Source: a virus. From it: a DNA stretch of 64,000 nucleotides. Below, one piece after another: positions 8,420 through 41,940 of this stretch; within the stretch, counting starts at the first letter, position 1, and each line of letters begins with the position of its first letter. Position numbers and translations under genes: made by a program. Location: the IMG/VR virus record IMGVR_UViG_3300047321_000238, positions 48,297 to 112,296 of that record. The stretch is one strand, 5' to 3'. The notes under the pieces were generated by a model that was given only the letters and a program-made list of their open reading frames with translations, made no database searches and was not told the origin of the DNA.

Positions 8420-8900
8420 AATTCGCTTGAAAGGAGGTGATGCCTGGCAAGATATACGAACTTGGGTAGGCTGCTTGAACATGTTGTGCTTTTGATGCAG
8501 CAACAGTTGGTTGGGTGGGACAGAAACACAACAATGGGGGATGAAATAAACAGATTTCACTAACGAAAGGAAGAAACAAACAGAATGATATTTTCAAAAC
8601 TAAAGACGCTAAAGGAAGACTCGGCAAATTACCAACAACTATTCAGCCTGGAGGTTGATGAATTAAATTTTCTTCAATCTCTAGAAAGGAGGTTGATAAT
8701 CTAAATTTTTATCAGCCACCGAAAAGGAGGTTGGTAAGGATTATGACGTAACTTTACACATATCATTTAAGGAGGTTGATACTCACACATGGACTAATAT
8801 TAAAGGAGATGATGCTTGGCAAGAAATAGAAATGACTATAAATATGAAAGGAGGTGATGCTAAATCTAAGACTAATAAGACTACTGAAGGATTGTTCGTA
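8420..8900 (+). repeat. cluster of seven Shine-Dalgarno-like repeats (AAAGGAGGTGATGC x3, AAGGAGGTTGAT x4) with mini-ORFs
   Basis: Direct reading: 8431, 8800 and 8845 carry the GGAGGTGATGC type. 8645, 8686, 8721 and 8768 carry the GGAGGTTGR type. No ORF longer than 30 codons on the + strand. Local GC is elevated. Confidence 0.5.
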
Positions 8901-8927
8901 ATCTTTCAATGCATGGGCCTATAGTAT

Positions 8928-13956: not shown

Positions 13957-13993
13957 AGAGTCTCATTAATTTGAGGCTCTTTTTATTTTAAAT
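13957..13993 (+). terminator. rho-independent terminator downstream of the giant gene
   Basis: AGAGUCUCA-UUAAUU-UGAGGCUCU forms a 9-bp stem (one G-U pair) followed by UUUUUAUUUU. Confidence 0.55.
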
Positions 13994-14010
13994 TTGAAAG
14001 GATGATTATA

Positions 14011-15102: not shown

Positions 15103-15104
15103 TA

Positions 15105-15190
15105 TTGCCCCCTTCGGGGATAGATCAGTGCCATTCCTTCGGATAAATATAAATAAGCTCCCTCCGCTCGCAGTCCCTTCGGGAACAAAT
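15105..15190 (+). ncRNA. three C-rich UUCG-loop mini-hairpins (CC-UUCG-GG x3) in non-coding DNA
   Basis: cccccttcgggg, tccttcgga and tcccttcggga fall within 80 nt in a 28% GC genome. No long ORF fits here. Confidence 0.25.
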
Positions 15191-15213
15191 AAACTAACTT
15201 CGTTAGTAGAAAT

Positions 15214-15240
15214 AAGCTTCGCAGACTAATCGTGCGGATT
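15214..15240 (+). promoter_or_regulatory. conserved intergenic motif copy a (AAGCTTCGCAGACTAATCGTGCGGATT)
   Basis: Member of a 5-copy motif family with core TAATCATGCG flanked by CGCA/TGCG inverted repeats. Confidence 0.35.
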
Positions 15241-15296
15241 CTATGAGAGCTATATTGAAACTAAGTTCTTATTGAACTATTTAGTTCTCATAATAA

Positions 15297-15336
15297 ATTC
15301 GCTACACTCATAGTCTTAGTCATGCGTGTTATCTGA
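15297..15336 (+). promoter_or_regulatory. conserved intergenic motif copy b (degenerate)
   Basis: CGCTACACTCATAGTCTTAGTCATGCGTGTTATCTGAG. Confidence 0.3.
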
Positions 15337-15374
15337 GATTATCCTTAATCCCAAATCTCATCTTATCCCAATAA

Positions 15375-15415
15375 ACTCACTACGTTCGTAGTTTTAATCA
15401 TGCGGATATCTTGAG
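15375..15415 (+). promoter_or_regulatory. conserved intergenic motif copy c
   Basis: CACTACGTTCGTAGTTTTAATCATGCGGATATCTTGAG. Confidence 0.35.
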
Positions 15416-15580
15416 ACATTTATATGCTTACTCATAGTTATAAACTTACTTACGAGTGACATTATAAATTCAATTAGCTATTAATTAGCTACTACATACA
15501 TACAACAAGGGGGAAATAATAGGAGACTTGCGTTTAATCCATTTCTCAGGTTAAATCTATATGCTCTGTATGTATAAAAT

Positions 15581-15620
15581 AAGCTACGCAGTTTAATCAT
15601 GCGTATTATTCGTGTAACTC
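15581..15620 (+). promoter_or_regulatory. conserved intergenic motif copy d
   Basis: AAGCTACGCAGTTTAATCATGCGTATTATTCGTGTAACTC. About 90% identical to copy e at 19029. Lies 265 bp upstream of gene 15885. Confidence 0.4.
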
Positions 15621-15884
15621 TAATGCTGAAAATAGAGTGTAGACTTAGCAGGTTCTTCTATTGCTTGCTATATGTTGAACGTATAAATGGAATCCTTATA
15701 TATTATTTATGTCTGTAATAATATAAGAAGTTAGCCCAAGACATGTTGTATATATATGAGAGTGCACGCTTATGTATATATTCCTAATTAAATTATTAAA
15801 TATGTATACATCCCTACTTACGAGTGAATGTATATATATAAGAATGATTTAAGCGAAAACGAAAAAATCAAAATTTGAAAGGAA

Positions 15885-16445
15885 ATGATTAAAATGGAAA
15901 AGAGAATATTTTTAGCAACAAAGAAAGAACACACAGTAGGAGTAGTGTTTAATGTAACAGAGAATAAATGTAACAGAATTCCTACAATCGTATATGAACA
16001 CGCTGGACAAATGAATGGCTTCAGTGACACAAGACTTAGTGCAATGAGTGCATTAATAAAAGTAATTGAAGAAAATAATAGTACTGAACTTACAAATGTA
16101 GTACCAGTATTTGTTAATGAAGCATTAGCAAAGTTTATAACTGATGAAACATATAAGTTCTGGATTAAGACTGGTGCAAAAAGTACTGGTGAAGTAATTA
16201 GTGAAAATGAAATGACAATACTAAAGAAGTTCGTAGAAGTTTGGAAAGAAAAAGGAGATGACTTTGTAATCAGAGATATATTTACTTGTCGTATTAATGA
16301 TAAAGTAAAAGCTGACCCTGCAAAGATATCTAAATTCAAACCATACAGCAGACAAAATGACGCATACTGCAGATACTGTTGGGACGAAATTGCTAAACTA
16401 TATAATGAAACAGTTGAAGCATCTATAGCATCAGTTGCAGTTTAA
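15885..16445 (+). CDS. hypothetical protein, 186 aa
   Basis: Track ORF with AAAGGAAATGA RBS-like sequence. C-terminal CRYCWDE. Confidence 0.55.
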   Translation: MIKMEKRIFLATKKEHTVGVVFNVTENKCNRIPTIVYEHAGQMNGFSDTRLSAMSALIKVIEENNSTELTNVVPVFVNEALAKFITDETYKFWIKTGAKSTGEVISENEMTILKKFVEVWKEKGDDFVIRDIFTCRINDKVKADPAKISKFKPYSRQNDAYCRYCWDEIAKLYNETVEASIASVAV

Positions 16446-16547
16446 ATAAATAGATATATGAGATTGATTACTTATCGTAGTCTTTCTCATATTTTTTATG
16501 TTATTTATGTGAAAATAATAAAACAATAAGAGGAGAGAATAAATAAA

Positions 16548-18963: not shown

Positions 18964-19028
18964 GATTAAAATAGCTATTGGTAATCTACTTAATCTAATA
19001 TATAAATAATAAAATCCTATATATAAAT

Positions 19029-19065
19029 AAGCTTCGCAGTTTTAATCATGCGTATTATTTGTATA
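19029..19065 (+). promoter_or_regulatory. conserved intergenic motif copy e
   Basis: AAGCTTCGCAGTTTTAATCATGCGTATTATTTGTATA, immediately after gene 18727..18963. Confidence 0.4.
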
Positions 19066-19511
19066 TAGGTTGGACCCTTAATCCATGAAAAGACGATTGG
19101 AGCATCTACGTATGTTGGGTATCGCAAAGTTTTCATTAATCCATCCCGTTCCTTATAGTATTATGCAGGATTTAGAATTCATTCTTGCATTCCTACTATA
19201 GGGAATACCCCTAAAAAGACTCAATCTTGCAAGAAAAAGAAAACCAACTTTCAGAATTACTATTATTGTGGAATAGATTATAATATATGCAAATATATTT
19301 TTAAGCTATCTTAACACAATTATGGTTAATTTTTTTCAGAGTTGGACACTAGTGTAATATATATAACACCAATTAACAGCTAACGCAGTTATGGAAATAA
19401 CACTTTGATATAGCTTAAAGTATATTTGCTGTTAATACACAATTCGTACTTACGAGTGCCGTAGATGCATATGCGACATAAAGTTAAGATGGATTTGTGC
19501 TTCCGAGTGCG

Positions 19512-19693
19512 AGCGTTAGCGAGCACGTATAATTAAATAGCGTTAGCGTCAATTATATAATAGCGTTAGCGTCAAAATTAAATAAAGCGTTAGCGTAGAT
19601 TTATAAATAGATATAATCTTCTATAGTATACCCATACTATTATGAAGTATATCGTCCTACAATTCCATTCAGTGACAGTTATAGCGTTAGCGT
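19512..19693 (+). repeat. iteron-like array: 5 direct copies of AGCGTTAGCG(T/A) spaced 13-26 bp apart, with a more distant fifth copy
   Basis: Copies at 19512, 19539, 19562, 19586 and 19683, embedded in AT-rich DNA inside a 1.1-kb ORF-free region (18964..20055). Confidence 0.5.
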
Positions 19694-20055
19694 TTAATAA
19701 CAAGCGTAGAATCGATTGTATCATCTATTAAGAGTAGCCATGTGTATACATACTACTAAACTTTAATAGATGCAACGTTGAACACGTAGTGCGAAACACA
19801 ATAAAATTATAATAATTTCTCTATACCTACCTAGCAGAATGTAAGTGATGTGGTAGTAGAGGATTAGGAGTCATATCTCCGTTTTAAAGAAATGGCACTC
19901 GTAGACCTGAACCAAGACGGTTTTGGGACGTAATCGGTGCTTTCACGTTATAATGGATATAAGCGTAGTGAGTAGTCTAAAAACGAACGGATTACTATTA
20001 CAGTAGTATATATACTTATATACACACATGGAATAAAAATAAAGGAGATTATAAT

Positions 20056-20286
20056 ATGCCTAATTATAATAGAATAAAACAAGAATTAATTAATAAAAGA
20101 ATTGAAGAAAGATATGATGGAGTAGATATGTTAACATCACGTCTTACTAATGGAGATATAGCTATTAAATGTAATGATATAGATAATAAGTGTAACCATC
20201 CTAATGGTTGTTGTATATTAAGTTTACAAGAATTTCAAGAATGGAATTGTAAATGTGCATATCAAAATAAGTATTACTTTAGGTAA
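20056..20286 (+). CDS. small Cys-rich protein, 76 aa
   Basis: Track ORF with AAAGGAG RBS. Contains CNHPNGCC and CKC cysteine clusters. Confidence 0.5.
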   Translation: MPNYNRIKQELINKRIEERYDGVDMLTSRLTNGDIAIKCNDIDNKCNHPNGCCILSLQEFQEWNCKCAYQNKYYFR

Positions 20287-20303
20287 GAAAGGATATATAA
20301 TAG

Positions 20304-20636
20304 ATGGAAGTATTAAAGTATATTAATGATACGTTAGTATCATATACATTAGCTGAACTATATGATAATAGAATAGGAATATCTGTAAGTAACGTAGAAG
20401 AGTTTATAGACATAATCGATAAATTAGATGCAACAGGTTTAGTGTATATGCCTACCGATGTAAAACGAGATAAGGTAGCATTGTACAATAGAGGTACAAG
20501 TAAAAATAGTTGTATATTAATAGAAAGAAGACCTGACCTAGGTAAATGTGAATATATATTAAGGTATTATTCAGAAGACTATGTAACTATGTATGCTGGC
20601 ACTATAAAGAAGTATAGTGAGGTGACATTAGTATAA
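20304..20636 (+). CDS. MELLKYIN-leader family small protein (MEVLKYIND)
   Basis: Conserved N-terminus. AAAGGA RBS. Tandem with the following family members. Confidence 0.65.
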   Translation: MEVLKYINDTLVSYTLAELYDNRIGISVSNVEEFIDIIDKLDATGLVYMPTDVKRDKVALYNRGTSKNSCILIERRPDLGKCEYILRYYSEDYVTMYAGTIKKYSEVTLV

Positions 20637-20956
20637 TGGAGTTGTTAAAGCATATTAATGATATGGCAAATACGTATACTATAAGTAAGCTGTTAAATAC
20701 AAACGCTATAGTACAGTGTGATAGTAAAGAAGAGTTTATGCAGTTAATATATAAGATAAACTGTACATCGTATCTACATACAACCCTTAGTGGTAGTACA
20801 TGGGATATTTATAATAACCAGGATAGATATAATGGAAGTATGGCAATATACTTTAACAGTAGACATCTAGAGTTTTGTTACGTAGATTATTATAAAACAT
20901 ATAGACGTAAGAACCCTAAGTATAAGTATAGTGAAGTAAATATAGTAACTATATAG
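20636..20956 (+). CDS. MELLKYIN-leader family small protein (MELLKHIND)
   Basis: Conserved N-terminus. TAATG overlap with the upstream gene. Confidence 0.65.
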   Translation: MELLKHINDMANTYTISKLLNTNAIVQCDSKEEFMQLIYKINCTSYLHTTLSGSTWDIYNNQDRYNGSMAIYFNSRHLEFCYVDYYKTYRRKNPKYKYSEVNIVTI

Positions 20957-20965
20957 AGTATGCAG

Positions 20966-20996
20966 AGTTTTTCTTCTGCACGCGAACATATGTTTA
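20966..20996 (+). promoter_or_regulatory. palindrome-containing intergenic element copy 1 (GTTTTTCTTCTGCACGCGAACATATGTTTAT)
   Basis: Contains the perfect palindrome AAACATATGTTT. Repeats at 23149 and 23498. Confidence 0.4.
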
Positions 20997-21023
20997 TTAT
21001 ATGAAAGGAGATTAAGCAAGTCT

Positions 21024-21371
21024 ATGAGTATAGAGTTATTAGATTATATAAATAAGAATAGTAAAAAGTCTTATACTATACAACAGATGATAGATGATAA
21101 GATAGCAATTCAAGTATGTAGTAGAGAAGAGTTGCAAAATCTTATAGATATAAGAAGTAGTCATGGTTGTATTGGGTGTACAGTAGAATCATGGGATACG
21201 TATGTAATAAAATATAACAAAAAGAGATATAATGGTCGGATGTGTTTAGCATTTCAAAGACCAGGATTTCTTGATTTCTGTGATACAGGATATTATCTAA
21301 ACCAAGGATATACTATAGTGCCTTATACAAGTCTAGTTATAATAGATAGTGATAAGGTGGTGTTAATATAA
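21024..21371 (+). CDS. MELLKYIN-leader family small protein (MSIELLDYINK)
   Basis: Family N-terminus shifted by 2 aa. C-terminal Y-L-N-Q-G-Y-T-I motif shared with other members. Confidence 0.6.
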   Translation: MSIELLDYINKNSKKSYTIQQMIDDKIAIQVCSREELQNLIDIRSSHGCIGCTVESWDTYVIKYNKKRYNGRMCLAFQRPGFLDFCDTGYYLNQGYTIVPYTSLVIIDSDKVVLI

Positions 21372-21688
21372 TGGAAGTATTAAGTCATATTAATAATATA
21401 CAAAGGTTTAGTATGTCAGACTTTATAGATAAAGGATATGTAATAAAGGTATGTCATAGAGCTGGACTAGAAGCTATAGTAGAGTATTTAGATAATCATG
21501 GTGTAGAAGTTAACGATGATATACGTGGAGCTGATGATAGAAGATGTGAATACTTATGTTTAAGACTAGGAGGATGGACAGATAAGAGTGGTAACATAAC
21601 AGGTTATTGTGCATGGCAAGCAAACTATGAACACTATAAGAGTAGAGGATGTACTATGTACGATTATGATGAGGTGGTGTTAGTATAA
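21371..21688 (+). CDS. MELLKYIN-leader family small protein (MEVLSHINN)
   Basis: Conserved N-terminus. TAATG overlap with the upstream gene. Confidence 0.65.
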   Translation: MEVLSHINNIQRFSMSDFIDKGYVIKVCHRAGLEAIVEYLDNHGVEVNDDIRGADDRRCEYLCLRLGGWTDKSGNITGYCAWQANYEHYKSRGCTMYDYDEVVLV

Positions 21689-21689
21689 T

Positions 21690-22022
21690 ATGGAGTTATT
21701 AAAAGAAGTAAATGAATTTAATAAGTATAGAATACGAGATATAATACGTAATAGCATGGATATATTAATACATACACCTAAGGAAGAAGACTTAATTATA
21801 TTATATAACAAGTTAATTGAATTAGGATATATAATAAGTGATCACATGTTGCATATATATAGTTCGTATAAAGAAGAGACATGTATAAGATTCTATAAGT
21901 ATACTAGTCAAAGTAGTGTAGCAAATGAATTAGGAATGAGTTATGCTGATAAACCATGGTATATCGAGAATGAAAAACAAATGAAGATAATAAACATGGG
22001 GGACATAGTATGGAAGTATTAA
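21690..22022 (+). CDS. MELLKYIN-leader family small protein (MELLKEVNE)
   Basis: Conserved N-terminus. Confidence 0.6.
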   Translation: MELLKEVNEFNKYRIRDIIRNSMDILIHTPKEEDLIILYNKLIELGYIISDHMLHIYSSYKEETCIRFYKYTSQSSVANELGMSYADKPWYIENEKQMKIINMGDIVWKY

Positions 22023-22324
22023 GATATATTAATGATGTAGTATATGGTATGTATACTATAGAAGAATTAATAAATAAGAAGATAGCAGTACATGTACCTA
22101 CAAAAGAAAAATTTAATAATATGCAAGATATGCTTATATTATTATATGGCAATAAAATAAAAACATTATCTTATGATAAAATAGGTAGGTATGCAAAGTT
22201 AATGTGTATTAACGTAGAGAGTAGTACAGGACCATATCAATATGACATGGTTATAAGTTATTGCGATAAACAATGGTATCTGGATAATGGTTATACTGTT
22301 ATAAGTATGGATAGTATAAGATGA
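22010..22324 (+). CDS. MELLKYIN-leader family small protein (MEVLRYIND), CDKQWYLDNGY C-terminus
   Basis: Conserved N- and C-terminal motifs. Confidence 0.65.
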   Translation: MEVLRYINDVVYGMYTIEELINKKIAVHVPTKEKFNNMQDMLILLYGNKIKTLSYDKIGRYAKLMCINVESSTGPYQYDMVISYCDKQWYLDNGYTVISMDSIR

Positions 22325-22512
22325 GTAAAGAATTATTAAGTTATATAATAGTAATGTTTATTACGGGTTTCTTAATAGGAATAATGGGAAACCTAATGGG
22401 CTCACCAAGTAAAAATAATATATTTATAGATGCTATATTATTTGGAATATTCATGATATTTTATCCATTTTATATTATTATATATGAAATAAGAAACAAT
22501 AGAAAGAAGTGA
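22321..22512 (+). CDS. small membrane protein with related N-terminus (MSKELLSYI), 63 aa
   Basis: Two predicted TM helices. ATGA overlap with the upstream gene. Confidence 0.5.
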   Translation: MSKELLSYIIVMFITGFLIGIMGNLMGSPSKNNIFIDAILFGIFMIFYPFYIIIYEIRNNRKK

Positions 22513-22519
22513 AAATATC

Positions 22520-22831
22520 ATGGAGATATTAAGTTATATAAATGATATAGCCTTTAACACGTATACTATAAAACAGTTAATAGGTAATAAGATAGCAGTG
22601 CATGTACCCACGCTTAAAGAATTCAAAGATATGCAAGAGATAGTTAAAGCACACAATAAAGATGTATATATAATGGATGATAGTATATATAATTGTATGA
22701 AAGAGGAGACATGTCTTAATATAGAAAATTGGAGCGGAGATTGTATATGTGATATACAAATAGAATATTGCGATAAACAATGGTATATAGATAATGGTTA
22801 TAAGATTATAAGTATGGAGGATATAAGATGA
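22520..22831 (+). CDS. MELLKYIN-leader family small protein (MEILSYIND), CDKQWYIDNGY C-terminus
   Basis: Conserved N- and C-terminal motifs. Confidence 0.65.
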   Translation: MEILSYINDIAFNTYTIKQLIGNKIAVHVPTLKEFKDMQEIVKAHNKDVYIMDDSIYNCMKEETCLNIENWSGDCICDIQIEYCDKQWYIDNGYKIISMEDIR

Positions 22832-23142
22832 GTGTAGAACTATTAAATTATATAAACAAAGAAATGTTTAAGATTATAATAACAGTAGATGAACTAGTTA
22901 ATAATGGAGTAGTTATACATGTAAATAATAGAGAAGAACAGGAAGAGTTTTTCACCGCAGTATGTAATGTGGATATACATGTACCTGCTGATACTAGAAT
23001 ACATTCATATAAAACACATGGAGATAAGCTGTTACACTTAATACAAAATCATAATGGTTTATATAGAGTAATGTATGGCACTAAGATGTCATTAGGTAAG
23101 TATAGAGTATTAGAGTATAAAGATATAAGTATAGTTAAGTAA
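22828..23142 (+). CDS. MELLKYIN-leader family small protein (MSVELLNYINK)
   Basis: Family N-terminus shifted by 2 aa. ATGA overlap with the upstream gene. Confidence 0.6.
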   Translation: MSVELLNYINKEMFKIIITVDELVNNGVVIHVNNREEQEEFFTAVCNVDIHVPADTRIHSYKTHGDKLLHLIQNHNGLYRVMYGTKMSLGKYRVLEYKDISIVK

Positions 23143-23148
23143 ACAACG

Positions 23149-23170
23149 GTTTTTTCTTTGCACGCGTAAT
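23149..23170 (+). promoter_or_regulatory. intergenic element copy 2 (GTTTTTTCTTTGCACGCGTAAT)
   Basis: Shares TTTTTCTTTGCACGCG with copies 1 and 3. The palindrome half is missing. Confidence 0.35.
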
Positions 23171-23187
23171 AAGAAGGAGTGAACGTA

Positions 23188-23487
23188 GTGATTGAGTTAT
23201 TAAAGTATATTAACAATGACTTCGTAAAAGAAGAAACTGTTGAAGCTATTAATAAAAGAAATAAGTTATTCAACGAACATGTATTAACATTAAGAAAAGA
23301 TATAGAAGAACTTAATGATAGAATAGAACTAGATAATAAAAGAAAAAGTAAAGCATTATTTATTATAGTATCTTCTACTATAGTTAATCTTATAATACAA
23401 TTAATATCTATAAGTCTTTATATTAAAGTATCATCAGCTATAGTATATGTATTGCTATTACAATTAGTTATATGGAAGAAAGATTAA
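23188..23487 (+). CDS. MELLKYIN-leader family protein with membrane C-terminus (V/MIELLKYINND)
   Basis: GTG start 8 nt after AAGGAG. The track ORF starts 9 nt earlier, inside the RBS. C-terminal hydrophobic helices. Confidence 0.55.
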   Translation: MIELLKYINNDFVKEETVEAINKRNKLFNEHVLTLRKDIEELNDRIELDNKRKSKALFIIVSSTIVNLIIQLISISLYIKVSSAIVYVLLLQLVIWKKD

Positions 23488-23497
23488 GTAGAAAAAG

Positions 23498-23528
23498 GTT
23501 TTTCTTTGCACGCAAACATATGTTTATA
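23498..23528 (+). promoter_or_regulatory. palindrome-containing intergenic element copy 3 (GGTTTTTCTTTGCACGCAAACATATGTTTAT)
   Basis: Near-identical to copy 1 and includes AAACATATGTTT. Confidence 0.4.
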
Positions 23529-23548
23529 TTAAGAAGGAGTGATAAGTC

Positions 23549-24016
23549 ATGGAAGAATTGTTAGAATTATTGGGAGATAGAAGAATACCTAAGTATGAGG
23601 AGACGACAGCATTTAATAACATACCTATTACAGATGAGTATGTAAAACATCAAATTATAAGTGAAGATAAAAAAGAAGTGAAGGCAATATTAAAAAGAAT
23701 AAGGACTAGCGGATTTCATTGCAATAGTACGAACAATTTAATAACTGTCATATTAGAGAACAAAGCTCTCTTAGATAAAATTAGTTTAGTAAAGGATGGT
23801 AGTTATTTAAATACAAAGATACTTTTAAAACGTAATAGCAAACCATATATACTTATATATAGTGGAATTAAAACTGTATTAGGTGATAAAGTATTCGATT
23901 TGAAATTTGATTATAGTGAAATAGAAATGTTAAATCTTATTACTGATAGAAGTGAAAGAGTATATATTAATATAAGAGATTATATAGATAGAGATAGATA
24001 TAGATGGAACTATTAA
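23549..24016 (+). CDS. hypothetical protein, 155 aa (N-terminus MEELLELL)
   Basis: Track ORF with AAGGAGTGA RBS. Loosely related leader. Confidence 0.55.
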   Translation: MEELLELLGDRRIPKYEETTAFNNIPITDEYVKHQIISEDKKEVKAILKRIRTSGFHCNSTNNLITVILENKALLDKISLVKDGSYLNTKILLKRNSKPYILIYSGIKTVLGDKVFDLKFDYSEIEMLNLITDRSERVYINIRDYIDRDRYRWNY

Positions 24017-24333
24017 ATTATATAAACAACGTGTTAAATAAGTATAACTTTGATTATCTATATGATAATAAAGTAGCAATAAGAGTACCAACAGCAGACG
24101 ATTATTATATATTAGAGAAGATGATAAATGATTATTGTAAGAGAAAATATATATCAGTAAGATTATTACCATTCTTAAGGAATAGTAATTATATAAAAAT
24201 ACATGCTACATGTATTAATATAGGACCAGAAACTATAACAAATCATTATGATATAAATATAAACTATTGTGATCAAGAATATTATATACAACAAGGATAT
24301 ACTATAGTTAATATATCTGACTGTTGTATATAG
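24004..24333 (+). CDS. MELLKYIN-leader family small protein (MELLNYINN), CDQEYYIQQGY C-terminus
   Basis: Conserved N- and C-terminal motifs. Confidence 0.65.
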   Translation: MELLNYINNVLNKYNFDYLYDNKVAIRVPTADDYYILEKMINDYCKRKYISVRLLPFLRNSNYIKIHATCINIGPETITNHYDININYCDQEYYIQQGYTIVNISDCCI

Positions 24334-24345
24334 GAGAGTAGTATA

Positions 24346-24558
24346 ATGGAACTATTAAAGTATATAAACAATTATAAACACAAGATGATGTGTGGCAGTA
24401 CTAGTAGACAAAAAAGAGGATGTGACAATATCGATATAAAAGCATGTTGTATAACATGTAATAAGAGAGACGATTGTTACTTTGAATGTGCAGGCTCACA
24501 GACAGAAAGACATTATCGAAATATAGATGAGCCATGTGATAAAGGAGTAGTACTATGA
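24346..24558 (+). CDS. MELLKYIN-leader family, short Cys-rich form (10 Cys in 70 aa)
   Basis: MELLKYINN leader followed by a CxxxxxCC...C..C...C Cys-rich body. Confidence 0.6.
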   Translation: MELLKYINNYKHKMMCGSTSRQKRGCDNIDIKACCITCNKRDDCYFECAGSQTERHYRNIDEPCDKGVVL

Positions 24559-24686
24559 TGGAATTATTACAAGCAGTTAATAAAATGAATATGTATACTT
24601 TAACAGATGTAGTCTATGCATTTACAAGAGGAAAGAAAATAGCAATAGAAATAAAAGATATTATAATAAAGAAGGAGTATTTATGA
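24555..24686 (+). CDS. MELLKYIN-leader family mini-protein, 43 aa (MMELLQAVNK)
   Basis: Not in track (under 60 aa). ATGA overlaps on both sides. Related leader. Confidence 0.4.
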   Translation: MMELLQAVNKMNMYTLTDVVYAFTRGKKIAIEIKDIIIKKEYL

Positions 24687-25051
24687 CCGAACTATTAAGT
24701 ATGATTAATAATTATTCTATAGGATATAGTTTAAACGATTTATATAATAAACATATAATAATTAGAATATTAAACAAAAAAGATTTATGTGATTTCATTG
24801 AAATTTCTAATTATAATAATACAGTTAGAACCTTTAATGCAGAAAAAGTATGGAATAAATATGTAGAACCACTTAATAATTGTAATAAAATTATATGCAT
24901 AGAATTAGAAGTAAATGACGAAGAAGATAATTATGATTTTATGTTTACATTTGGAAGTATAAGTTATTATACTGATCCAATACTACATCGTGAAAATAAA
25001 TATGAAATAGTAGATTATCATAAAGATATAATAAATAATTGGGAGATATAA
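24683..25051 (+). CDS. MELLKYIN-leader family small protein (MTELLSMINN)
   Basis: Conserved N-terminus. Confidence 0.6.
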   Translation: MTELLSMINNYSIGYSLNDLYNKHIIIRILNKKDLCDFIEISNYNNTVRTFNAEKVWNKYVEPLNNCNKIICIELEVNDEEDNYDFMFTFGSISYYTDPILHRENKYEIVDYHKDIINNWEI

Positions 25052-25054
25052 TTT

Positions 25055-25402
25055 ATGATTGAATTATTAAGTTTTGTTAATGATGAAACAAACATAAAAG
25101 AAACAGTATATGTAGACGACATAGCTGGAAACAAAATAACATTAGAATTTTCTACTAAAGAAAGTTATATGATATTTTGTAAAGCTATGGACGAAACATA
25201 TGATACTTATACTGAATATACAAAGAATGATGCATGGGAAGACTATATAGAAGATGAAGAGCAGAACAAAGATTTTAAAGGTAAGCTTGGTTTGAATCTA
25301 CATGATAATAAAAAAGGTTGGAACTATTGTGAAATTGATTGGTATAAAGATAATGGCTATAAAGTATATAAGTACGATGATATTATATTAAAGTACAATT
25401 AA
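25055..25402 (+). CDS. MELLKYIN-leader family small protein (MIELLSFVND), CEIDWYKDNGY C-terminus
   Basis: Conserved N- and C-terminal motifs. Confidence 0.65.
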   Translation: MIELLSFVNDETNIKETVYVDDIAGNKITLEFSTKESYMIFCKAMDETYDTYTEYTKNDAWEDYIEDEEQNKDFKGKLGLNLHDNKKGWNYCEIDWYKDNGYKVYKYDDIILKYN

Positions 25403-25419
25403 AAAGGAAATGAAGAATA

Positions 25420-25746
25420 ATGAGGGAATTATTAAAACATATACAAGAGAATCAATATAAAATAGAAGATATTATAAAAGATAATGTAGCGTTGTATATT
25501 GATAATAGAAAAGATTTAGATACTATAATAGAAGTAGCAAATAGACATAATATATTTATTGGGCCATTTATAAGAACATCATTAACGGATTCATATTGTA
25601 AAAAAGGAATCTTTATAAAGATAATACACATTAAAGAAAATGATTATTATGTGAAAGGATATAAATATAGATTAGGATGGAATTTCGATGATAATGATAA
25701 ATCACTCTTAACTGTATATAGTAGAGAGGATTATATATTAGTATAA
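25420..25746 (+). CDS. MELLKYIN-leader family small protein (MRELLKHIQE)
   Basis: Conserved N-terminus. Confidence 0.6.
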   Translation: MRELLKHIQENQYKIEDIIKDNVALYIDNRKDLDTIIEVANRHNIFIGPFIRTSLTDSYCKKGIFIKIIHIKENDYYVKGYKYRLGWNFDDNDKSLLTVYSREDYILV

Positions 25747-25758
25747 GGAGAGATTAAT

Positions 25759-26070
25759 ATGGCCGAGCTATTAAAATATGTAAATGAAAATATTAAAGAC
25801 AAATATACCGTAAAGATGATTATAGACAAAAGATTAGTAGTTAATGTAAAAACTAAAGAAGCGTTTAATGATATGCAGGATAAAATATGGGATTATAATC
25901 ATAAAGTATGCTTTATAGATAATGATGTTTATTCCATACACAAATCACAAACATGCATTAAAGTAGAAAGAATAAATACATCGGAATATGATTTAAATAT
26001 AGAATTTTGTGACAAACAATGGTATATAGATGAAGGCTATCAAATAATTGATATAGGAAAAGTAATATAA
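25759..26070 (+). CDS. MELLKYIN-leader family small protein (MAELLKYVNE), CDKQWYIDEGY C-terminus
   Basis: Conserved N- and C-terminal motifs. Confidence 0.65.
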   Translation: MAELLKYVNENIKDKYTVKMIIDKRLVVNVKTKEAFNDMQDKIWDYNHKVCFIDNDVYSIHKSQTCIKVERINTSEYDLNIEFCDKQWYIDEGYQIIDIGKVI

Positions 26071-26249
26071 TGGAGCTATTAAAATACATTAATACTCACA
26101 TATATAAAAGAAAATGTAAGTATGGATGTAGATATAAAGAAGATGAAGATGAACATATATGTTGTCATGATTGTGATCGTATAGATATATGTGACGCAGT
26201 CTGTTTCTCTTTAGATGAAAAGGAATGTGACTTCACTATTAAGGAATAA
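26070..26249 (+). CDS. MELLKYIN-leader family, short Cys-rich form, 59 aa
   Basis: Not in track. TAATG overlap with the upstream gene. MELLKYINTHIYKRKCKYGCRYK...CCHDCDRIDICDAVC. Confidence 0.5.
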   Translation: MELLKYINTHIYKRKCKYGCRYKEDEDEHICCHDCDRIDICDAVCFSLDEKECDFTIKE

Positions 26250-26263
26250 GAAGGAGATGTATT

Positions 26264-26788
26264 ATGAGCGTTAAAGATGATTTACTACAAGAATTAAATA
26301 AAGTTTTAGCATTACAAGAAGAAATGGCTAAAAGAGTAGAAATAGTAAAAACTAAAATATTAGAGGAAGAAAATAAGAAAGTATTTTGGACACCAACTCA
26401 TGGGCAACAATATTACTATATAAATAACGAAGTGATCGTTCTAGGCTGTCCTTATGACAATAACTGGCGTAGTGATAAAGTAAGAATAAAAAATCTTAAC
26501 TATTACGAAACAGAAAAAAAATGTGAAAGAGCCATATTTGAACAAATTTTAAACAGAAAATTGAATAAATTTGCTCATGAAAACAATGAAGAAGAAATTG
26601 ATTGGAGTAATCCAGTGCAAGCTAAATATATGATAATATATGACAATGATTCAAAAAAGCTTGAAGCTAGTATCTATAGTCATATTCAATCTTTTGGACA
26701 AGTATATTTCACATCAAAAGAAATAGCAGAACGAGCAATTAAAAATTTTAAAGATGATTTAATAAGATCTTTTACTACTAAGGAGTAA
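26264..26788 (+). CDS. hypothetical protein, 174 aa
   Basis: Track ORF with AAGGAGATG RBS. Confidence 0.55.
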   Translation: MSVKDDLLQELNKVLALQEEMAKRVEIVKTKILEEENKKVFWTPTHGQQYYYINNEVIVLGCPYDNNWRSDKVRIKNLNYYETEKKCERAIFEQILNRKLNKFAHENNEEEIDWSNPVQAKYMIIYDNDSKKLEASIYSHIQSFGQVYFTSKEIAERAIKNFKDDLIRSFTTKE

Positions 26789-26794
26789 TAATCT

Positions 26795-27421
26795 ATGGAA
26801 ATATTAAAACATATAAATGAATTAAAAACTAAAGGAATAGCATATATATGTTACGATACTGGAGGTAGTGGAGAAGATGGTAGAAGATTATACGCACGCA
26901 ATATATATGATTATTATAAAGAATTATACTTCGATGTAGTAGTATTAAGCTATAGTACTCACGCAAAATATAATAATATAGATAATATTCTACCACAAGG
27001 AACTGGTGGCACTTATATGTCATCGCCATTAACTTTATTAATGCAAGATGCAGAGAGAGTTAAAAACGATAAAGAACTATGTCATTATGCTTACAACTTC
27101 AATCCTAATAATATAATTGTATTAGTAGGGGATGGAGATAACTGGAGTGAAGATAATGATAGATTCTGTAGATGTATAGAAGAGATAACAAAAACTAATA
27201 GTGTTGTATATCATGAAATATTAGGAGGTTCACATCATGATAATACAATGTACAAGCGGTTAAAAGCTAAAAGATATTCAAAGGTTCATCTCTATAAAGT
27301 AGAGAAAGAACAAGATATATTTGGCAATAAGAAAAAACAAATAAAAGGTGCCGATTATTATACTGCTATAACTGAAGATTTAGTAGATAGTATATTTGAT
27401 TGGGATGTATCATATGAATAA
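26795..27421 (+). CDS. MELLKYIN-leader family, long member, 208 aa (MEILKHINE)
   Basis: Conserved N-terminus on a larger body that is unrelated to the other members. Confidence 0.6.
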   Translation: MEILKHINELKTKGIAYICYDTGGSGEDGRRLYARNIYDYYKELYFDVVVLSYSTHAKYNNIDNILPQGTGGTYMSSPLTLLMQDAERVKNDKELCHYAYNFNPNNIIVLVGDGDNWSEDNDRFCRCIEEITKTNSVVYHEILGGSHHDNTMYKRLKAKRYSKVHLYKVEKEQDIFGNKKKQIKGADYYTAITEDLVDSIFDWDVSYE

Positions 27422-27454
27422 TAAAGAATAAATAATATAAAGGAGATGATTGCC

Positions 27455-27529
27455 ATGAGTATATTACCGATGATATTAGTATTAGTAATTGGTTATATTT
27501 TAGGCAAAAATAACGCACACTTAAAATAA
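27455..27529 (+). CDS. hydrophobic micro-protein, 24 aa (MSILPMILVLVIGYILGKNNAHLK)
   Basis: AAAGGAG RBS 7 nt upstream. Single TM helix. Not in track. Confidence 0.35.
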   Translation: MSILPMILVLVIGYILGKNNAHLK

Positions 27530-27554
27530 GAAAGGAGTATAAAGATTAAATGTC

Positions 27555-27731
27555 ATGAAACTCAATTTGAAAACAGACTTAATAAAAGCATTTATATTAA
27601 TAGGGATTTTTACCGCTATATATTTAGTATGGTGGTTTTTTGAATTGTTTATTAATTATAAAATAATGGAGATGGTAGTAAATGGAGGTTTAACTTATTG
27701 TATATACTACATATTAAGAAGTAATAAGTAG
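27555..27731 (+). CDS. small membrane protein, 58 aa
   Basis: AAAGGAG RBS. Two hydrophobic segments. Not in track. Confidence 0.4.
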   Translation: MKLNLKTDLIKAFILIGIFTAIYLVWWFFELFINYKIMEMVVNGGLTYCIYYILRSNK

Positions 27732-27758
27732 GAATAAGCAAGAAAGGAGTAAATTATT

Positions 27759-27950
27759 ATGGCTGATGCAACTTTAATAAATACACCACCAACAGGAACA
27801 CCACCGCCAGGACCAACAGGTATGCCACCAAATCCTGCACAAGGACTAGGAATGGGATCATGTTTAAATTCTCATATGAATGGTTATTTTATAAATTCAT
27901 TTGGCAGTGGACATAAAACTACTGCAAAGAAAAAGAAGAAGAAAAAATAA
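27759..27950 (+). CDS. hypothetical Pro/Gly-rich protein with poly-Lys tail, 63 aa
   Basis: AAAGGAG RBS. PPTGTPPPGPTGMPPNP followed by a KKKKKKK tail. Confidence 0.4.
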   Translation: MADATLINTPPTGTPPPGPTGMPPNPAQGLGMGSCLNSHMNGYFINSFGSGHKTTAKKKKKKK

Positions 27951-27962
27951 GGAGGATTTTAT

Positions 27963-28109
27963 ATGGATTCAAATATGTACAATTACTTATATGGAATTGG
28001 AGATAGAACCTCCTTATCTAGTCAAAATAAGAAAAGTACTAAAAAATCTACTAAGAAAACGGCAGTTAAAAAAACAACAGCTAAGAAGACTGCAACTAAA
28101 AAGAAATAA
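27963..28109 (+). CDS. small basic KKT-repeat protein, 48 aa (histone-H1-tail-like composition)
   Basis: AAGGAGG RBS 7 nt upstream. STKKSTKKTAVKKTTAKKTATKKK. Preferred over the track ORF 27901..28119, which is in another frame. Confidence 0.45.
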   Translation: MDSNMYNYLYGIGDRTSLSSQNKKSTKKSTKKTAVKKTTAKKTATKKK

Positions 28110-28295
28110 CATATCGTGAAAGAATGTATTTGTTTAATATAGATACATTCTTTTTTGTTATATACAAATAATAAGGAGAAATGAATATGTATATAAGCAC
28201 AGGAGCAAGTATTGCAATAATTATTTTTTTATCTACATCACTTATTTGTAATGTAGTGTCATTAATTATTCAAATAAACCAACATAATAAAGGAA

Positions 28296-28571
28296 ATGAA
28301 AATTATGATAAGAAAGAATGAGAAGAAAAAAGCTTTAAAAGTTAATTTAATCTGTATAACATATTGTATTGTAATGGGAATACCTATAGGTATTTTACTT
28401 GAACATGTTAACAATGAAAATATAGCAACTGCAATATTTATGTTTTTTAGTATTAGTGTAGTATTATTATCTATTTATTTAGACAATAAAGGCAAAACTA
28501 CTATCTATAAAAGTATTCCTTATAATGAAGAGTATGAAAAATTTATGAAACAAATAGAAATGATACATTAA
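28296..28571 (+). CDS. small membrane protein, 91 aa
   Basis: Track ORF. Two TM helices. Confidence 0.5.
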   Translation: MKIMIRKNEKKKALKVNLICITYCIVMGIPIGILLEHVNNENIATAIFMFFSISVVLLSIYLDNKGKTTIYKSIPYNEEYEKFMKQIEMIH

Positions 28572-28572
28572 T

Positions 28573-28836
28573 ATGGAGATATTAAATCATATCAATAATG
28601 CTATGAGTATAAACTTTCATGAAGATTCATTGCTTATAGCTAATATATTAGTAAACTACACGCTTGAATATCAAGATTATAGTGAGAATAAAAAAGCTGC
28701 AGACTATATGGTAAAGGGAGTAAGTTATGTTATGGGAGATAGTCATTGGTCAATCAAAAATGTATATAACTTAGCAGAAACCGTTAAAGGATTGTATGTA
28801 GCAGGAGTTCCACTACATCAATATAGGAAGGGATAA
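28573..28836 (+). CDS. MELLKYIN-leader family small protein (MEILNHINN)
   Basis: Conserved N-terminus. TAATATG junction with the upstream gene. Confidence 0.6.
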   Translation: MEILNHINNAMSINFHEDSLLIANILVNYTLEYQDYSENKKAADYMVKGVSYVMGDSHWSIKNVYNLAETVKGLYVAGVPLHQYRKG

Positions 28837-33084: not shown

Positions 33085-33299
33085 TGAGATGGAAAAAGAT
33101 AATCAAGAAATTTCCTAAGATAGGAGATACAAGAGTAATTAGTTATTTCGCATTACTTTTAGTAGAAATAGATAAAGAAGTAAGATGGCTTGAAAAAGTA
33201 ACAGTAAAACAAATAAGAGCATATAAGTACTATGGTCCTTGTGGTCAATACGGTCCACATTGGAAGAATATAAAATTTATAGATGAAGAGGTGAAATAA
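33084..33299 (+). CDS. hypothetical protein, 71 aa
   Basis: Track ORF. Overlapping start and stop with neighbours. Confidence 0.45.
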   Translation: MRWKKIIKKFPKIGDTRVISYFALLLVEIDKEVRWLEKVTVKQIRAYKYYGPCGQYGPHWKNIKFIDEEVK

Positions 33300-34075
33300 T
33301 GTTAAAGTTTATTGGAAGAGGATCTTGTTTTAATTCAAAAGAAGGAAACAATTCAGCTTATATAAAAAAAGGTGAAAGTTTCTTATTAATAGATTGTGGT
33401 TGTCTAACTGCAAATAAGATAATTGAATCAAATTTATTAGATGGAGTAAAGAAAGTTCATATATTAATAACGCATTTCCACGATGATCATGTTGGTAGCT
33501 TGGGAAGCTTACTATTATATTGTCGTTATGCATTAGATATAATACCAGATATATATTTTGAAGACAAACAGTATTTAGTTGATTTCTTAGCTATGCAAGG
33601 ACTATTAGAACATGAAGTTTATACGTATATGACAAATAGATATGTTGACGATATGAAATTAACTTATTCTCCAGTTCCAACAAAACATTATGAATTTTAT
33701 AAGCCAATTCAAGAGACTGTTTATTCAAGTGAAATAACAAAGACTGTAGTCATGACAAATTACTTTAAATGCTATGGATATTATCTTGTAAAAAATAATA
33801 TTGAAAGAACAAATCAACATGCATATTATTCTGGAGACAGCAATTCAATTCCAAAAAATATGTTAGATATATTAGAATTTTATGATTCAGCAATTTTATA
33901 TCAAGATGTATGCTTATCAGATGAACATGGATATGCTCATTTACCTCTAAGTAAGTTATGTGAATTAATACCTAAAGAATTAAGACATAAAGTATATTGT
34001 ATGCATTTGAACTCAGATGAATTAATAACTAAATGTAAAGAAGAAGGATTCAACGTTGTTGAAGTGGAGGTTTAA
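33299..34075 (+). CDS. metallo-beta-lactamase-fold hydrolase
   Basis: HxHxDH motif at ITHFHDDHVGSLGS. Confidence 0.6.
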   Translation: MLKFIGRGSCFNSKEGNNSAYIKKGESFLLIDCGCLTANKIIESNLLDGVKKVHILITHFHDDHVGSLGSLLLYCRYALDIIPDIYFEDKQYLVDFLAMQGLLEHEVYTYMTNRYVDDMKLTYSPVPTKHYEFYKPIQETVYSSEITKTVVMTNYFKCYGYYLVKNNIERTNQHAYYSGDSNSIPKNMLDILEFYDSAILYQDVCLSDEHGYAHLPLSKLCELIPKELRHKVYCMHLNSDELITKCKEEGFNVVEVEV

Positions 34076-41928: not shown

Positions 41929-41940
41929 TAAAGATAATTG

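Follow-up and report, generated by a model that had tools for sequence, protein, structure and literature searches.

The question raised by this locus is what a short, partly palindromic element is doing between the genes of a viral gene array that is otherwise tightly packed. The window, i.e., the whole 64-kb stretch of DNA that was analysed, represents ~26% of the phage genome (contig on record 247,883 bp, ~29% GC) and carries on its plus strand, from 20304 to 27421, a ~7-kb array of ~20 small paralogous genes which have the N-terminal motif M-E-L-L-x-Y-I-N in common. Only three gaps of at least 45 nt are found in this array, and each of them is filled by one copy of the element; the remaining junctions are all between -13 and +17 nt. 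Intrinsic terminator prediction gave no terminator inside the array or anywhere between 19000 and 27600, the first one downstream of the array being predicted at 27612-27646 on the plus strand. The genes that follow the three copies, all on the plus strand, are 21024-21371 behind copy 1 (115 aa, an array family member with the N-terminus MSIELLDYIN), 23188-23487 between copies 2 and 3 (99 aa, N-terminus (M)IELLKYIN, hydrophobic and probably membrane-spanning in its C-terminal half), and 23549-24016 behind copy 3 (155 aa, N-terminus MEELLELL). Homologues of SpoIIID (52026-52328, Pfam E = 9e-28), DUF1256 and DUF444 are also encoded in the window, as are proteins shared with Bacillus phages at 50% to 61% identity, from which we infer an endospore-forming Firmicute as the host.

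The element, hereafter called the cassette, is present as two full copies and one truncated copy, all oriented as the genes. Copy 1 (20967-20997, GTTTTTCTTCTGCACGCGAACATATGTTTAT; 0 mismatches in the core scan) begins with a pyrimidine tract and TGCACGC (20967-20983) and continues with the palindromic box and TAT, and copy 3 (23497-23528, GGTTTTTCTTTGCACGCAAACATATGTTTAT; 1 mismatch in the core scan) is composed of GGTTTTTCTTTGCACGC plus AAACATATGTTTAT. Copy 2 (23148-23166, GGTTTTTTCTTTGCACGCG) is without the 15-nt box segment and runs directly into TAATAAGAAGGAG, and the palindrome is therefore missing. Reading of the sequence confirmed, within 1-2 nt, the three copies that the initial annotation had placed at 20966, 23149 (truncated) and 23498, and also their intergenic position, which holds both in the window and in the one relative found and is fixed relative to the Shine-Dalgarno (SD) sequence and the start codon. 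In each case a stop codon lies 6-10 nt upstream and a strong SD just downstream, the latter being AAAGGAG at 21004-21010 for gene 21024-21371, where it belongs to the 3' module of copy 1, and AAGAAGGAG at 23171-23179 and at 23531-23539 for genes 23188-23487 and 23549-24016, respectively (all plus strand). The corresponding starts are ATG 21024, GTG 23188 and ATG 23549; a GTG at 23179 was rejected as the start of the second gene because it overlaps the SD. The copies had been described as lying 25-45 bp upstream of the starts; upstream they are, but the distance from the 3' end of the element to the start codon is 20-26 nt (~21 nt for copy 2), with the palindrome centre ~29-34 nt upstream of the start codon.

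Copies 1 and 3 match at 20 of 21 core positions, and the pyrimidine tract, which has one extra C in copy 1, adds one substitution and one indel. The cassette is thus far better conserved than the surrounding genes, the paralogs flanking the cassettes being 16% to 22% identical in amino-acid sequence. Copies 2 and 3 have TTTTTCTTTGCACGC and AAGAAGGAGTGA in common, AAGAAGGAGTGA at the copy 2 SD being identical to the sequence after copy 3. The heptamer TGCACGC occurs four times in the window against 0.88 expected, and three of these occurrences are in the element. A scan of the 64-kb window with the 21-nt core found no further copy, the next best sites having at least 6 mismatches, which is the level of shuffled sequence, and the wider palindrome signal that the initial annotation had proposed looking for across the genome did not appear within the window.

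The kind of site carried by the cassette is suggested by the box of copy 1, CGAACATATGTTTA, at 20983-20996 and 27 nt from ATG 21024, which is a candidate LexA-type (Cheo/SOS) box. Firmicutes, the Bacillus clade included, use a LexA motif of the form GAAC-N4-GTTC, with CGAACATATGTTCG as the ideal site, and CGAACATATGTTTA, which is also found at 489-502 of the relative's contig (L002), differs from this consensus at 2 of 14 positions, one of them in the core, its N4 spacer ATAT being the same as the consensus spacer. GAAC....GTTT is the form used in searches of C. difficile, where it is listed for lexA, recA and ruvC, and SPbeta boxes with 3-4 mismatches are bound by LexA at 3.9-12 nM. No GAAC-N4-GTTY site other than the copy 1 box occurs in the window. 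At up to 2 mismatches, one LexA site was found, inside the element, in comparison to 0.10 expected per window, and such a site turned up in 10 of 100 shuffles, for a motif that was recognised post hoc; at up to 3 mismatches there were 4 sites in the window in comparison to 1.47 expected, two of them within genes. That the site falls within the conserved element lends the match some additional weight.

The copy 3 box (CAAACATATGTTTA, 23513-23526, 22 nt to ATG 23549) departs from the LexA consensus at 3 positions, among them a G>A change in the GAAC half-site which makes it less like a LexA site, and contains a perfect 12-bp palindrome, AAACATATGTTT; it fits a different dimeric protein reading RAACATATGTTT. 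The perfect 12-bp palindrome that had been described as the core of the element is therefore true of copy 3 only, since copy 1 has GAACATATGTTT and copy 2 has none. The further suggestion of a site of the type bound by dimeric regulators is borne out to the extent that the palindrome appears to match the Firmicute LexA box, with 2 mismatches in copy 1 and in the relative. Between the end of the box and the start codon there are 22-27 nt, a distance that falls in the range of known LexA boxes. Because the palindrome closely matches a LexA binding site, the cassette is probably a regulatory switch of an ordinary kind, although one found in an unusual place.

A competing signal that would account for the element sequence was absent, since no sigma-A promoter, terminator or RNA structure was found in it. 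No pair of sigma-A -35/-10 hexamers at workable spacing fits the element, the best pairs in the three gaps scoring 6-7 of 12 and not being called by the promoter scan: TYTGCA and TATWWT are conserved but 14 nt apart where sigma-A needs 16-18 nt, the partner hexamers at 16-18 nt spacing are not conserved, and a -10 at TATWWT would put the transcription start inside GGAG. Rfam covariance models gave no match at the gathering threshold in the whole window, and between 20900 and 23600 gave chance-level matches only, outside the element. Folding of the four copies, that of the relative included, gave z-scores of -0.43 to +0.95 and no common structure or hairpin. The element may be an operator or a roadblock inside one long operon, not one of a set of independent promoters. 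The proposal that the array is divided into separately controlled sub-operons finds only partial support, from a conserved, intergenic, operator-like element, and it has to contend with the lack of an internal terminator, of a sigma-A promoter and of the palindrome in copy 2.

The best explanation, to which we would assign a probability of roughly one in three, is that the cassette is modular and that its box is a candidate operator for host LexA or a LexA-like protein. The cassette would be a cis-regulatory module of ~55 bp set within one long operon of small accessory genes, in which module A, to which some role may be assigned, consists of the pyrimidine tract and the GC-rich heptamer TGCACGC, module B is the 14-bp dyad (C)RAACATATGTTTA and would act as the operator, and module C is a short A/T spacer with the strong SD. 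Module B would be bound by a dimer 22-27 bp upstream of the start, most likely of LexA, the host SOS repressor, or alternatively of a phage-encoded LexA-like protein, and RNA polymerase, whether initiating at the cassette or reading through it, would be stopped by the bound repressor. Expression of the genes that follow copy 1, with its strong box, and copy 3, with a weaker one, would stay low until LexA is cleaved, the trigger being, e.g., DNA damage, or single-stranded DNA from phage replication or nuclease attack, and copy 2, having lost the box, would leave its gene unregulated. The cassette copies and the conserved 5' ends of the genes would in addition be patches of homology through which genes are gained and lost by recombination.

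Several observations do not sit easily with LexA. LexA does not account for TGCACGC and the T-tract, the best-conserved part beyond the box, and this adjoining module has no counterpart in described SOS boxes; no recognisable promoter lies beside the candidate operator, which leaves both occlusion and roadblock possible; and copy 2 does without a box. The similarity between copies could also come from recent duplication or gene conversion instead of selection. In comparison to the Firmicute LexA boxes of Bacillus, Clostridium and SPbeta, the cassette box has the same half-site, spacer length, ATAT spacer and 14-bp dyad, and likewise precedes a start codon by a few tens of bp, but it is found inside a large-phage operon instead of at a recognisable sigma-A promoter, has A for the critical G in copy 3, and is missing from copy 2. 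A phage precedent is provided by GIL01, a Bacillus thuringiensis tectivirus which gates its own genes through dinBox operators, boxes of the CGAAC(n)4GTTCG type for host LexA; these boxes lie downstream of the transcription start, with weak or half sites beside strong ones, repression is by host LexA, and phage gp7 and the LexA homologue gp6 also take part. GIL01, however, is small and temperate, and its boxes, placed at defined sigma-A promoters, decide between lysogeny and the lytic cycle, whereas the genome considered here belongs to a very large phage, the window shows no evident lysogeny genes or promoters, and the candidate gated genes are small accessory paralogs.

A possible alternative, if on the unlikely side, is that the cassette is mainly a footprint of recombination or duplication, the 5' leader having been copied with inserted genes in the style of the T4 PeSL mini-circles and the palindrome being no operator; the copies would then stay similar through recent events or gene conversion. 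The relative, a contig of 719 bp and the only one found, bears directly on this reading. It carries a fourth cassette copy, again between two array genes, in the gene order 21371-like, 22520-like, cassette, 24004-like, and the identity in comparison to the window is 59% for its orthologous protein and 72% to 76% for its DNA. A single cassette with the same 5' flank, GTTAAGTAAAYAACGG, stands at the position of copy 2, and genes 22828, 23188 and 23549 are absent at this one junction of the 719-bp contig; the different gene content suggests recombination there, as with T4 PeSLs. Gene 23188-23487, thus missing from the corresponding place, is flanked in the window by copies 2 and 3 as direct repeats that have the 5' module and AAGAAGGAGTGA in common. 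Copy 2 itself looks like a chimera of sequence like that of the relative and sequence like that of copy 3 with a 15-nt deletion: its 5' flank GTTAAGTAAACAACGG agrees with that of the relative's element, from which copy 2 differs in that exactly AACATATGTTTATTT is gone between GCACGCG and TAATAA.

The PeSLs of T4-type phages, which are mobile regulatory cassettes, are a documented precedent for such a process (Arbiol et al. 2010; Comeau et al. 2014). They resemble the present cassette in that both are short, repeated and intergenic, reach from the upstream stop codon to the next SD or start, are concentrated in a hyperplastic region of small ORFans, and are surrounded by gene content that differs between relatives, for the cassette at the one junction available, with one gene here flanked by two copies. 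The PeSLs, however, carry a consensus sigma-70 promoter and a stable terminator stem-loop and number ~50 per genome, whereas the cassette has neither promoter nor stem-loop, is found three times in 64 kb, and has an operator-like dyad instead. A run of 25 nt that spans TGCACGC and the box is identical between copy 1 and positions 480-504 of the relative's contig, but conservation in the relative is by itself no proof of constraint, because coding DNA of the two phages also has identical runs of 18-25 nt, which again agrees with a footprint. What argues against a mere footprint is that copies 1 and 3 lie between paralogs so divergent that a leader of the same age, if neutral, should no longer be recognisable, that copy 1 matches the copy of the relative, another phage lineage, better than it matches copy 3, that the best-conserved segment is exactly the dyad with its GC-rich neighbour and not the whole leader, and that a near-consensus LexA box would be unlikely by chance at this spot. 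Recombination and operator roles are, moreover, not mutually exclusive.

It is also conceivable, though unlikely, that the box is the operator of a dimeric repressor or activator encoded by the phage, which would read RAACATATGTTT and form a private switch of the array unlinked to host LexA. Copy 3, with its perfect 12-bp palindrome and A in place of the LexA-critical G, speaks for such a protein, as do the restriction of the element to the array, which is expected of a dedicated regulator, the presence in the window of at least one homologue of a sequence-specific transcription factor, SpoIIID, and the example of phage GIL01, whose LexA homologue gp6 binds its own site. The regulator could be, e.g., a small DNA-binding protein that has escaped recognition or, with lower likelihood, the SpoIIID homologue at 52026-52328. 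SpoIIID binds as a monomer to the degenerate site WWRRACAR-Y, and its bottom-strand match in the element (8 of 9 positions) is expected dozens of times per window by chance. Besides SpoIIID, no HTH, LexA_DNA_bind or other DNA-binding Pfam domain was found in 81 proteins and 30 individually scanned ones, and the modelled array protein has no DNA-binding fold. The agreement with the LexA consensus at 12 of 14 positions, spacer included, would furthermore have to be a coincidence.

Another unlikely reading takes the conserved ~30 nt as the recognition sequence of a phage-specific promoter, used by a sigma factor or an RNA polymerase that the phage encodes. A convincing sigma-A promoter is absent from all intergenic regions of the window (the best scores 10/12, chance level in AT-rich DNA), and a 248-kb phage may well use its own transcription signals. 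One version would be a late promoter of the AR9 nvRNAP type, AACA-N6-T(A/G), with the start at the A of GTTTA: the AR9 late consensus is AACA-(6N)-TA/G with the last base as the start site, the AACA-TATGTT-TA (AACATATGTTTA) of copies 1 and 3 and the relative fits it, the resulting 5' UTRs would be 22-27 nt with the SD included, and AR9 likewise has a jumbo-sized, AT-rich genome and a Firmicute host. However, AACA-N6-T[AG] is neither enriched in the window (99 on the plus strand in comparison to ~84 expected) nor placed before genes, with only 17 matches within 60 nt of a start, mostly in coding sequence; copy 2 is without it, and the AR9 motif is much shorter than the conserved block of the cassette. 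Recurrence would be expected of a promoter class, but no further copy of the 21-nt core is present in the 64-kb window with its more than 100 genes. Among the window proteins scanned (~26% of the genome), no RNA polymerase or sigma domain was found, phiKZ/AR9-type RNAP subunits included, and a 1,672-aa protein has no sequence match to solved structures, which include the AR9 and phiKZ RNAPs in the PDB. The protein similarities point to Bastille-like phages and phage G instead of AR9 or phiKZ.

Very improbable is an RNA-level element of the 5' leader, be it a translational repressor site, an RNase processing site or a hairpin of U-rich tract and SD that sequesters the latter: the element is always on the coding strand directly upstream of a strong SD, and the tract UUUUUCUU can pair with AAGAAGGA in copies 2 and 3 (by inspection, and partly in the copy 2 fold), but this pairing is not the minimum-free-energy fold in copies 1 and 3 and the relative and is trivially expected for any pyrimidine run with an SD, the fold z-scores and Rfam search gave neither a common structure nor a match, and conservation is highest in a dyad of the DNA type instead of in a stem.

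The preferred reading of the box as a LexA-type operator also has a more far-reaching form, which we regard as improbable, in which the whole array would be a cassette system that is gated by the SOS response, driven by recombination and independent of an integrase, namely a bank of small accessory proteins which a large and possibly virulent phage keeps behind host-LexA operators and which is induced only when the cell senses DNA damage, e.g., on attack of a host nuclease on the phage or through single-stranded DNA from phage replication. The banked proteins, all with the same N-terminal MELLKYIN leader, may be counter-defence or capsid-targeted, and the cassettes and gene 5' ends would be the crossover points at which genes are shuffled in and out. 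Such a system would be a functional analogue of SOS-controlled integron arrays and T4 PeSLs combined.

Because the evidence is purely sequence-based and the copies are few, the candidate operator should for now be regarded as a lead and not yet as a discovery. Should the box prove to function as a LexA operator, this very large phage of a spore-forming Firmicute would be using the DNA-damage sensor of its host to time or condition part of the accessory-gene array, a use of LexA by phages that has so far been documented mainly for the temperate GIL01 and SPbeta and not for paralog arrays in a jumbo-sized genome, and mitomycin C or lexA mutants would offer a simple handle on a ~20-protein family of unmatched fold. 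If the box is instead a private phage operator or promoter, the cassette would still mark the sites of regulation and gene turnover in the array.

Reading the sequence from 20700 to 23800 showed that three copies of a short cassette, referred to as c1, c2 and c3, are present between genes of the small-paralog array at 20304-27421, as the initial annotation had reported; all of them are on the + strand. Copy c1 (20967-20997, + strand) reads GTTTTTCTTCTGCACGCGAACATATGTTTAT with one additional C in its pyrimidine tract, copy c2 (23148-23166, + strand) reads GGTTTTTTCTTTGCACGCG, then TAATAAGAAGGAG, and copy c3 (23497-23528, + strand) reads GGTTTTTCTTTGCACGCAAACATATGTTTAT. The copies start 6 to 10 nt past the upstream gene's stop codon, and 3' of each copy a short A/T spacer leads to a strong Shine-Dalgarno sequence (AAAGGAG or AAGAAGGAG) and to a start codon, which is ATG at 21024 for c1, GTG at 23188 for c2 and ATG at 23549 for c3. 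According to a crude gene map, the array contains just three gaps of at least 45 nt, which are the cassette sites, and its remaining junctions measure -13 to +17 nt. When the window was scanned with the 21-nt cassette core, matches were obtained at 0 and 1 mismatch, and the next best sites had at least 6 mismatches, equal to the level of shuffled sequence, so that the window yielded no further copies. TGCACGC occurs 4 times in the window in comparison to 0.88 expected, and 3 of the 4 lie inside cassette copies. The cassette is real and conserved. The perfect 12-bp palindrome AAACATATGTTT described earlier for the core holds for c3 only, whereas c1 reads GAACATATGTTT.

Searching 5.8 billion proteins for homologues of the array family returned, besides the family itself, only P0002, which shares 59% identity with the protein encoded by 22520-22831 and comes from a 719-bp ENA contig of a relative, L002; the array family is extremely rare. 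The same contig carries a cassette which reads ...TAA GTAGTTAAGTAAATAACGGTTTTCTTTTCTGCACGCGAACATATGTTTATTTTAATAAAAGGAGTAAAGCGAATG..., which shares with c1 an identical 25-nt run, TTCTGCACGCGAACATATGTTTATT, and which is also intergenic, being located between 22520-like and 24004-like genes. Because its 5' flank, GTTAAGTAAATAACGG, matches that of c2, this copy corresponds to c2 in position, and in comparison to L002 exactly AACATATGTTTATTT is missing from c2. The gene order in L002 is a 21371-like gene, a 22520-like gene, the element and a 24004-like gene, while the window has three additional genes before 22520, and between 22520 and 24004 three additional genes (22828, 23188 and 23549) and a second cassette copy, with c2 and c3 standing as direct repeats on either side of gene 23188-23487. 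The comparison with this one relative provides evidence that genes may come and go at the cassette. It was also observed that at 440-470 of L002 the 22520-like gene ends and GTAGTTAAGTAAATAACGG comes next, a stretch which, in comparison to window positions 22815-22831 and 23115-23147, matches the final codons and trailer of window gene 22828-23142. By recombination at the repeated GATATAAG, a repeat in paralog 3' ends, a 22828-like gene thus seems either to have been lost from L002 or to have been inserted in the window. The coding DNA of the window and L002 is 72% to 76% identical and itself has identical runs of 18 to 25 nt, and the L002 copy thus proves that a diverged relative has the cassette and has it between genes, not that it is under exceptional constraint. 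The case for constraint, or else for recent homogenisation, is made more strongly by the contrast within the genome, where the genes next to c1, c2 and c3 have only 16% to 22% amino-acid identity to one another and the cassettes are near-identical. Elsewhere, DNA patterns found no further copies in IMG/VR, where a 15-nt pattern gave single chance matches only (records L003-L082); JGI metagenome contigs contained no copies or relatives, GTDB genomes gave one unrelated Bacteroidales match only (L123), and the INPHARED phages gave none, or chance-level matches only, by megablast, blastn and tblastn.

The source contig is on record with 247,883 bp and a GC content of about 29%, and no DNA similarity to the window was found among 50,697 phage records. 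Sequence past the edges of the window amounted to 1.4 kb on one side and none on the other. Individual proteins of the window are similar to proteins of Bastille-like Bacillus phages (61%) and of Bacillus phage G (50%), and the window encodes a SpoIIID homologue at 52026-52328 (Pfam E = 9e-28; phmmer against B. subtilis SpoIIID 3e-19), DUF1256 and DUF444, and also NAMPT, a NadR-like adenylyltransferase, an NMN transporter, Nudix, Macro, NADAR, Tad8 and an Apyc1-like metallo-beta-lactamase. The dense counter-defence/NAD-salvage-type gene set was noted at 33299-34075, 49798-51228, 56846-57535, 60184-61836 and 62372-62824 and among their neighbours, accompanied by an ABC transporter pair and a GGDEF protein (5075-5554). 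We take the source to be a phage of very large size that infects an endospore-forming Firmicute and is rich in accessory and counter-defence genes, and the SpoIIID homologue together with the sporulation-type DUF1256/DUF444 genes suggests that the phage manipulates host sporulation.

The array itself comprises about 20 small genes, mostly paralogs at 19% to 30% identity, which had no match to a Pfam or PADLOC family, and the AlphaFold2 model of one of their products, although confident (pLDDT 87), resembled no fold in PDB or BFVD at a significant level. Nearly all array genes, otherwise unrelated membrane and Cys-rich proteins included, open with the same approximately 25 nt encoding M-E-L-L-x-Y-I-N. 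This shared start, in the form M-E-[LV]-L-x-[YH]-[IV]-N, was seen in about 20 consecutive genes across 20304-28836 (for example 20304, 21371, 22010, 22321, 22520, 23188, 24004, 24346, 24555, 26070, 26795 and 28573) and also on a DUF444-like 208-aa protein; we speculate that it could serve cassette shuffling as a site of recombination, or be an N-terminal targeting peptide such as the capsid-targeting sequence of the T4 internal proteins. Just upstream of the array, two large non-coding regions (15103-15893 and 18964-20055) have their own repeat families, namely AAATAAGCT(T/A)CGCAGTTTTAATCATGCG(T/G)AT about 5 times, TACTTACGAGTG 3 times and AGCGTTAGCG 5 times within 19512-19692; these look iteron-like or promoter-like, CGTTAGC among them recalls the SPO1 late -35 element, CGTTAGA, and neither region had a tRNA or Rfam match. 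Two further features were recorded: an SD-plus-start-like repeat, AAAGGAGGT(G/T)GAT(G/A), present seven times at 8368-9002, in the 635 nt upstream of a giant gene (9003/8928-13946; 1,647-1,672 aa) with no Pfam, PHROG or PDB match, and 762 nt without a convincing ORF at 47788-48549, with GC-richer complementary segments such as CCCCTCGTGTGAATAGTAGGGTGAGACTCCCAGACGAGG, which may be a non-coding RNA and had no Rfam match at the gathering threshold.

The earlier label of the palindrome as operator-like was reasonable, and by sequence the 14-bp dyad of the cassette in c1 and L002 comes close to the consensus of the Gram-positive box for LexA, the host DNA-damage (SOS) repressor. The box of these two copies, CGAACATATGTTTA, has 2 of 14 mismatches to the B. 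subtilis LexA consensus CGAACATATGTTCG (from a table after Au et al. 2005), and its spacer is the consensus ATAT. The box has the GAAC....GTTT form, which in C. difficile is used as a search motif and is listed at the lexA, recA and ruvC operators, and the motif of Firmicute and Actinobacteria LexA is GAAC-N4-GTTC. Within the window, c1 is the sole GAAC-N4-GTTY site and the sole site with at most 2 mismatches from the ideal LexA box (0.10 expected; at least one such site in 10 of 100 shuffles). By our own estimate, the chance of this single site falling in the approximately 60 nt of the full-length copies would be about 1e-4 for this motif, which becomes of the order of 1e-3 after allowing for the approximately 15 motifs compared by eye. 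The c3 box, CAAACATATGTTTA, has 3 mismatches to the consensus, including G>A in GAAC; SPbeta boxes bound experimentally have 3 to 4 mismatches and Kd values of 3.9 to 12 nM, with the GAAC/GTTC core intact. The closest working parallel to the cassette is found in the Firmicute SOS boxes and the dinBoxes of phage GIL01, in which the LexA of the host exerts repression at CGAAC(n)4GTTCG boxes situated beyond the transcription start, with a weak half-site beside a strong site, and in which the phage encodes a LexA homologue binding its own site. By sequence c1 and L002 belong to the LexA-box class, as candidate binding sites; overall, the cassette is probably a protein-binding cis-regulatory element of some kind, and we put the probability that the dyad is a LexA-type operator at roughly one in three.

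Other signals were considered for the cassette and rejected. Promoter prediction and our own scan of all intergenic gaps gave no acceptable -35/-10 pair for sigma-A: the conserved TYTGCA and TATWWT have a spacing of just 14 nt, with TATWWT as the -10 the mRNA would begin within GGAG, and at 16 to 18 nt spacing the partner hexamers are poor and unconserved, with best scores of 6 to 7 out of 12. No intergenic region of the 64-kb window contains a convincing sigma-A promoter, and the phage may use non-canonical promoters. The cassette contains no predicted intrinsic terminator, none being predicted across 19000-27600, and the c1 hairpin GCAGAG/TTCTGC is not common to the other copies; clear terminators exist in the window, for example at 13960-13995, 16460-16500, 28125-28160, 41940-41975 and 51965-52000. 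Small TTG ORFs on the minus strand overlap c1 (20867-21019) and c2 (23049-23273) and none lies over c3, and coding on that strand was rejected. Other Firmicute motifs were compared by eye with consensus sequences: the left arm of CIRCE, TTAGCACTC, matches TTTGCACGC at 7 of 9 positions and the right arm is absent, the cre, NrdR, Spo0A, ComK and Fur/PerR boxes and the sigma-B, E, F, G, H and K promoters did not fit, and the SpoIIID site fitted no better than expected by chance.

Several points leave room for alternatives to a LexA operator, namely that the perfect palindrome copy, c3, is the poorer LexA match, that LexA leaves TGCACGC and the T-tract unexplained, that no promoter is identifiable at the cassette, that c2 has no box, that recent recombination could account for the similarity of the copies, and that the DNA examined is only about a quarter of the genome. 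The alternative that survives best, unlikely as it is, would be the footprint of a PeSL-like duplication or recombination, with no function as an operator; like T4-type PeSLs, the cassette is a repeated stop-to-SD element in a hyperplastic ORFan array with differing gene content, but it has neither a sigma-70 promoter nor a terminator stem-loop, both defining features of PeSLs, and should not be classed as one. Ranked behind it, and regarded by us as improbable, is a private phage-encoded regulator in place of LexA. More doubtful again is a promoter for phage-specific transcription machinery, including the AR9 type, whose late consensus AACA-(6N)-TA/G fits the box, but is neither enriched nor positioned before genes in the window. 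An RNA-level leader element is very improbable, with fold z-scores of -0.43 to +0.95, no common fold and no Rfam match for the cassette.

Under the LexA-operator reading, the cassette would be a modular cis-regulatory unit within a single long operon, in which module A (the T-tract and TGCACGC) may act as an unrecognised kind of promoter element or offer a second site to protein, while module B would be the LexA-type operator and module C the Shine-Dalgarno sequence. The array looks like one long operon because no intrinsic terminator is predicted inside it, the first being at 27612, and the separately controlled sub-operons proposed in the initial annotation go beyond the evidence. LexA or a LexA-like phage protein, sitting 22 to 27 bp ahead of the start codon, would stop polymerase that initiates at the cassette or reads through it, and the genes behind c1, with its strong box, and c3, with its weaker box, would be expressed only once LexA is inactivated; c2 has lost the box. 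The sequence itself shows how the cassette is built, where its copies lie, that a relative has it, that it matches the LexA consensus and that competing signals are absent, and from this we infer LexA binding, repression, dependence on SOS and a part in recombination. What is new here is that the dyad is identified, specifically and in a form open to testing, as a near-consensus LexA box of the Gram-positive type.
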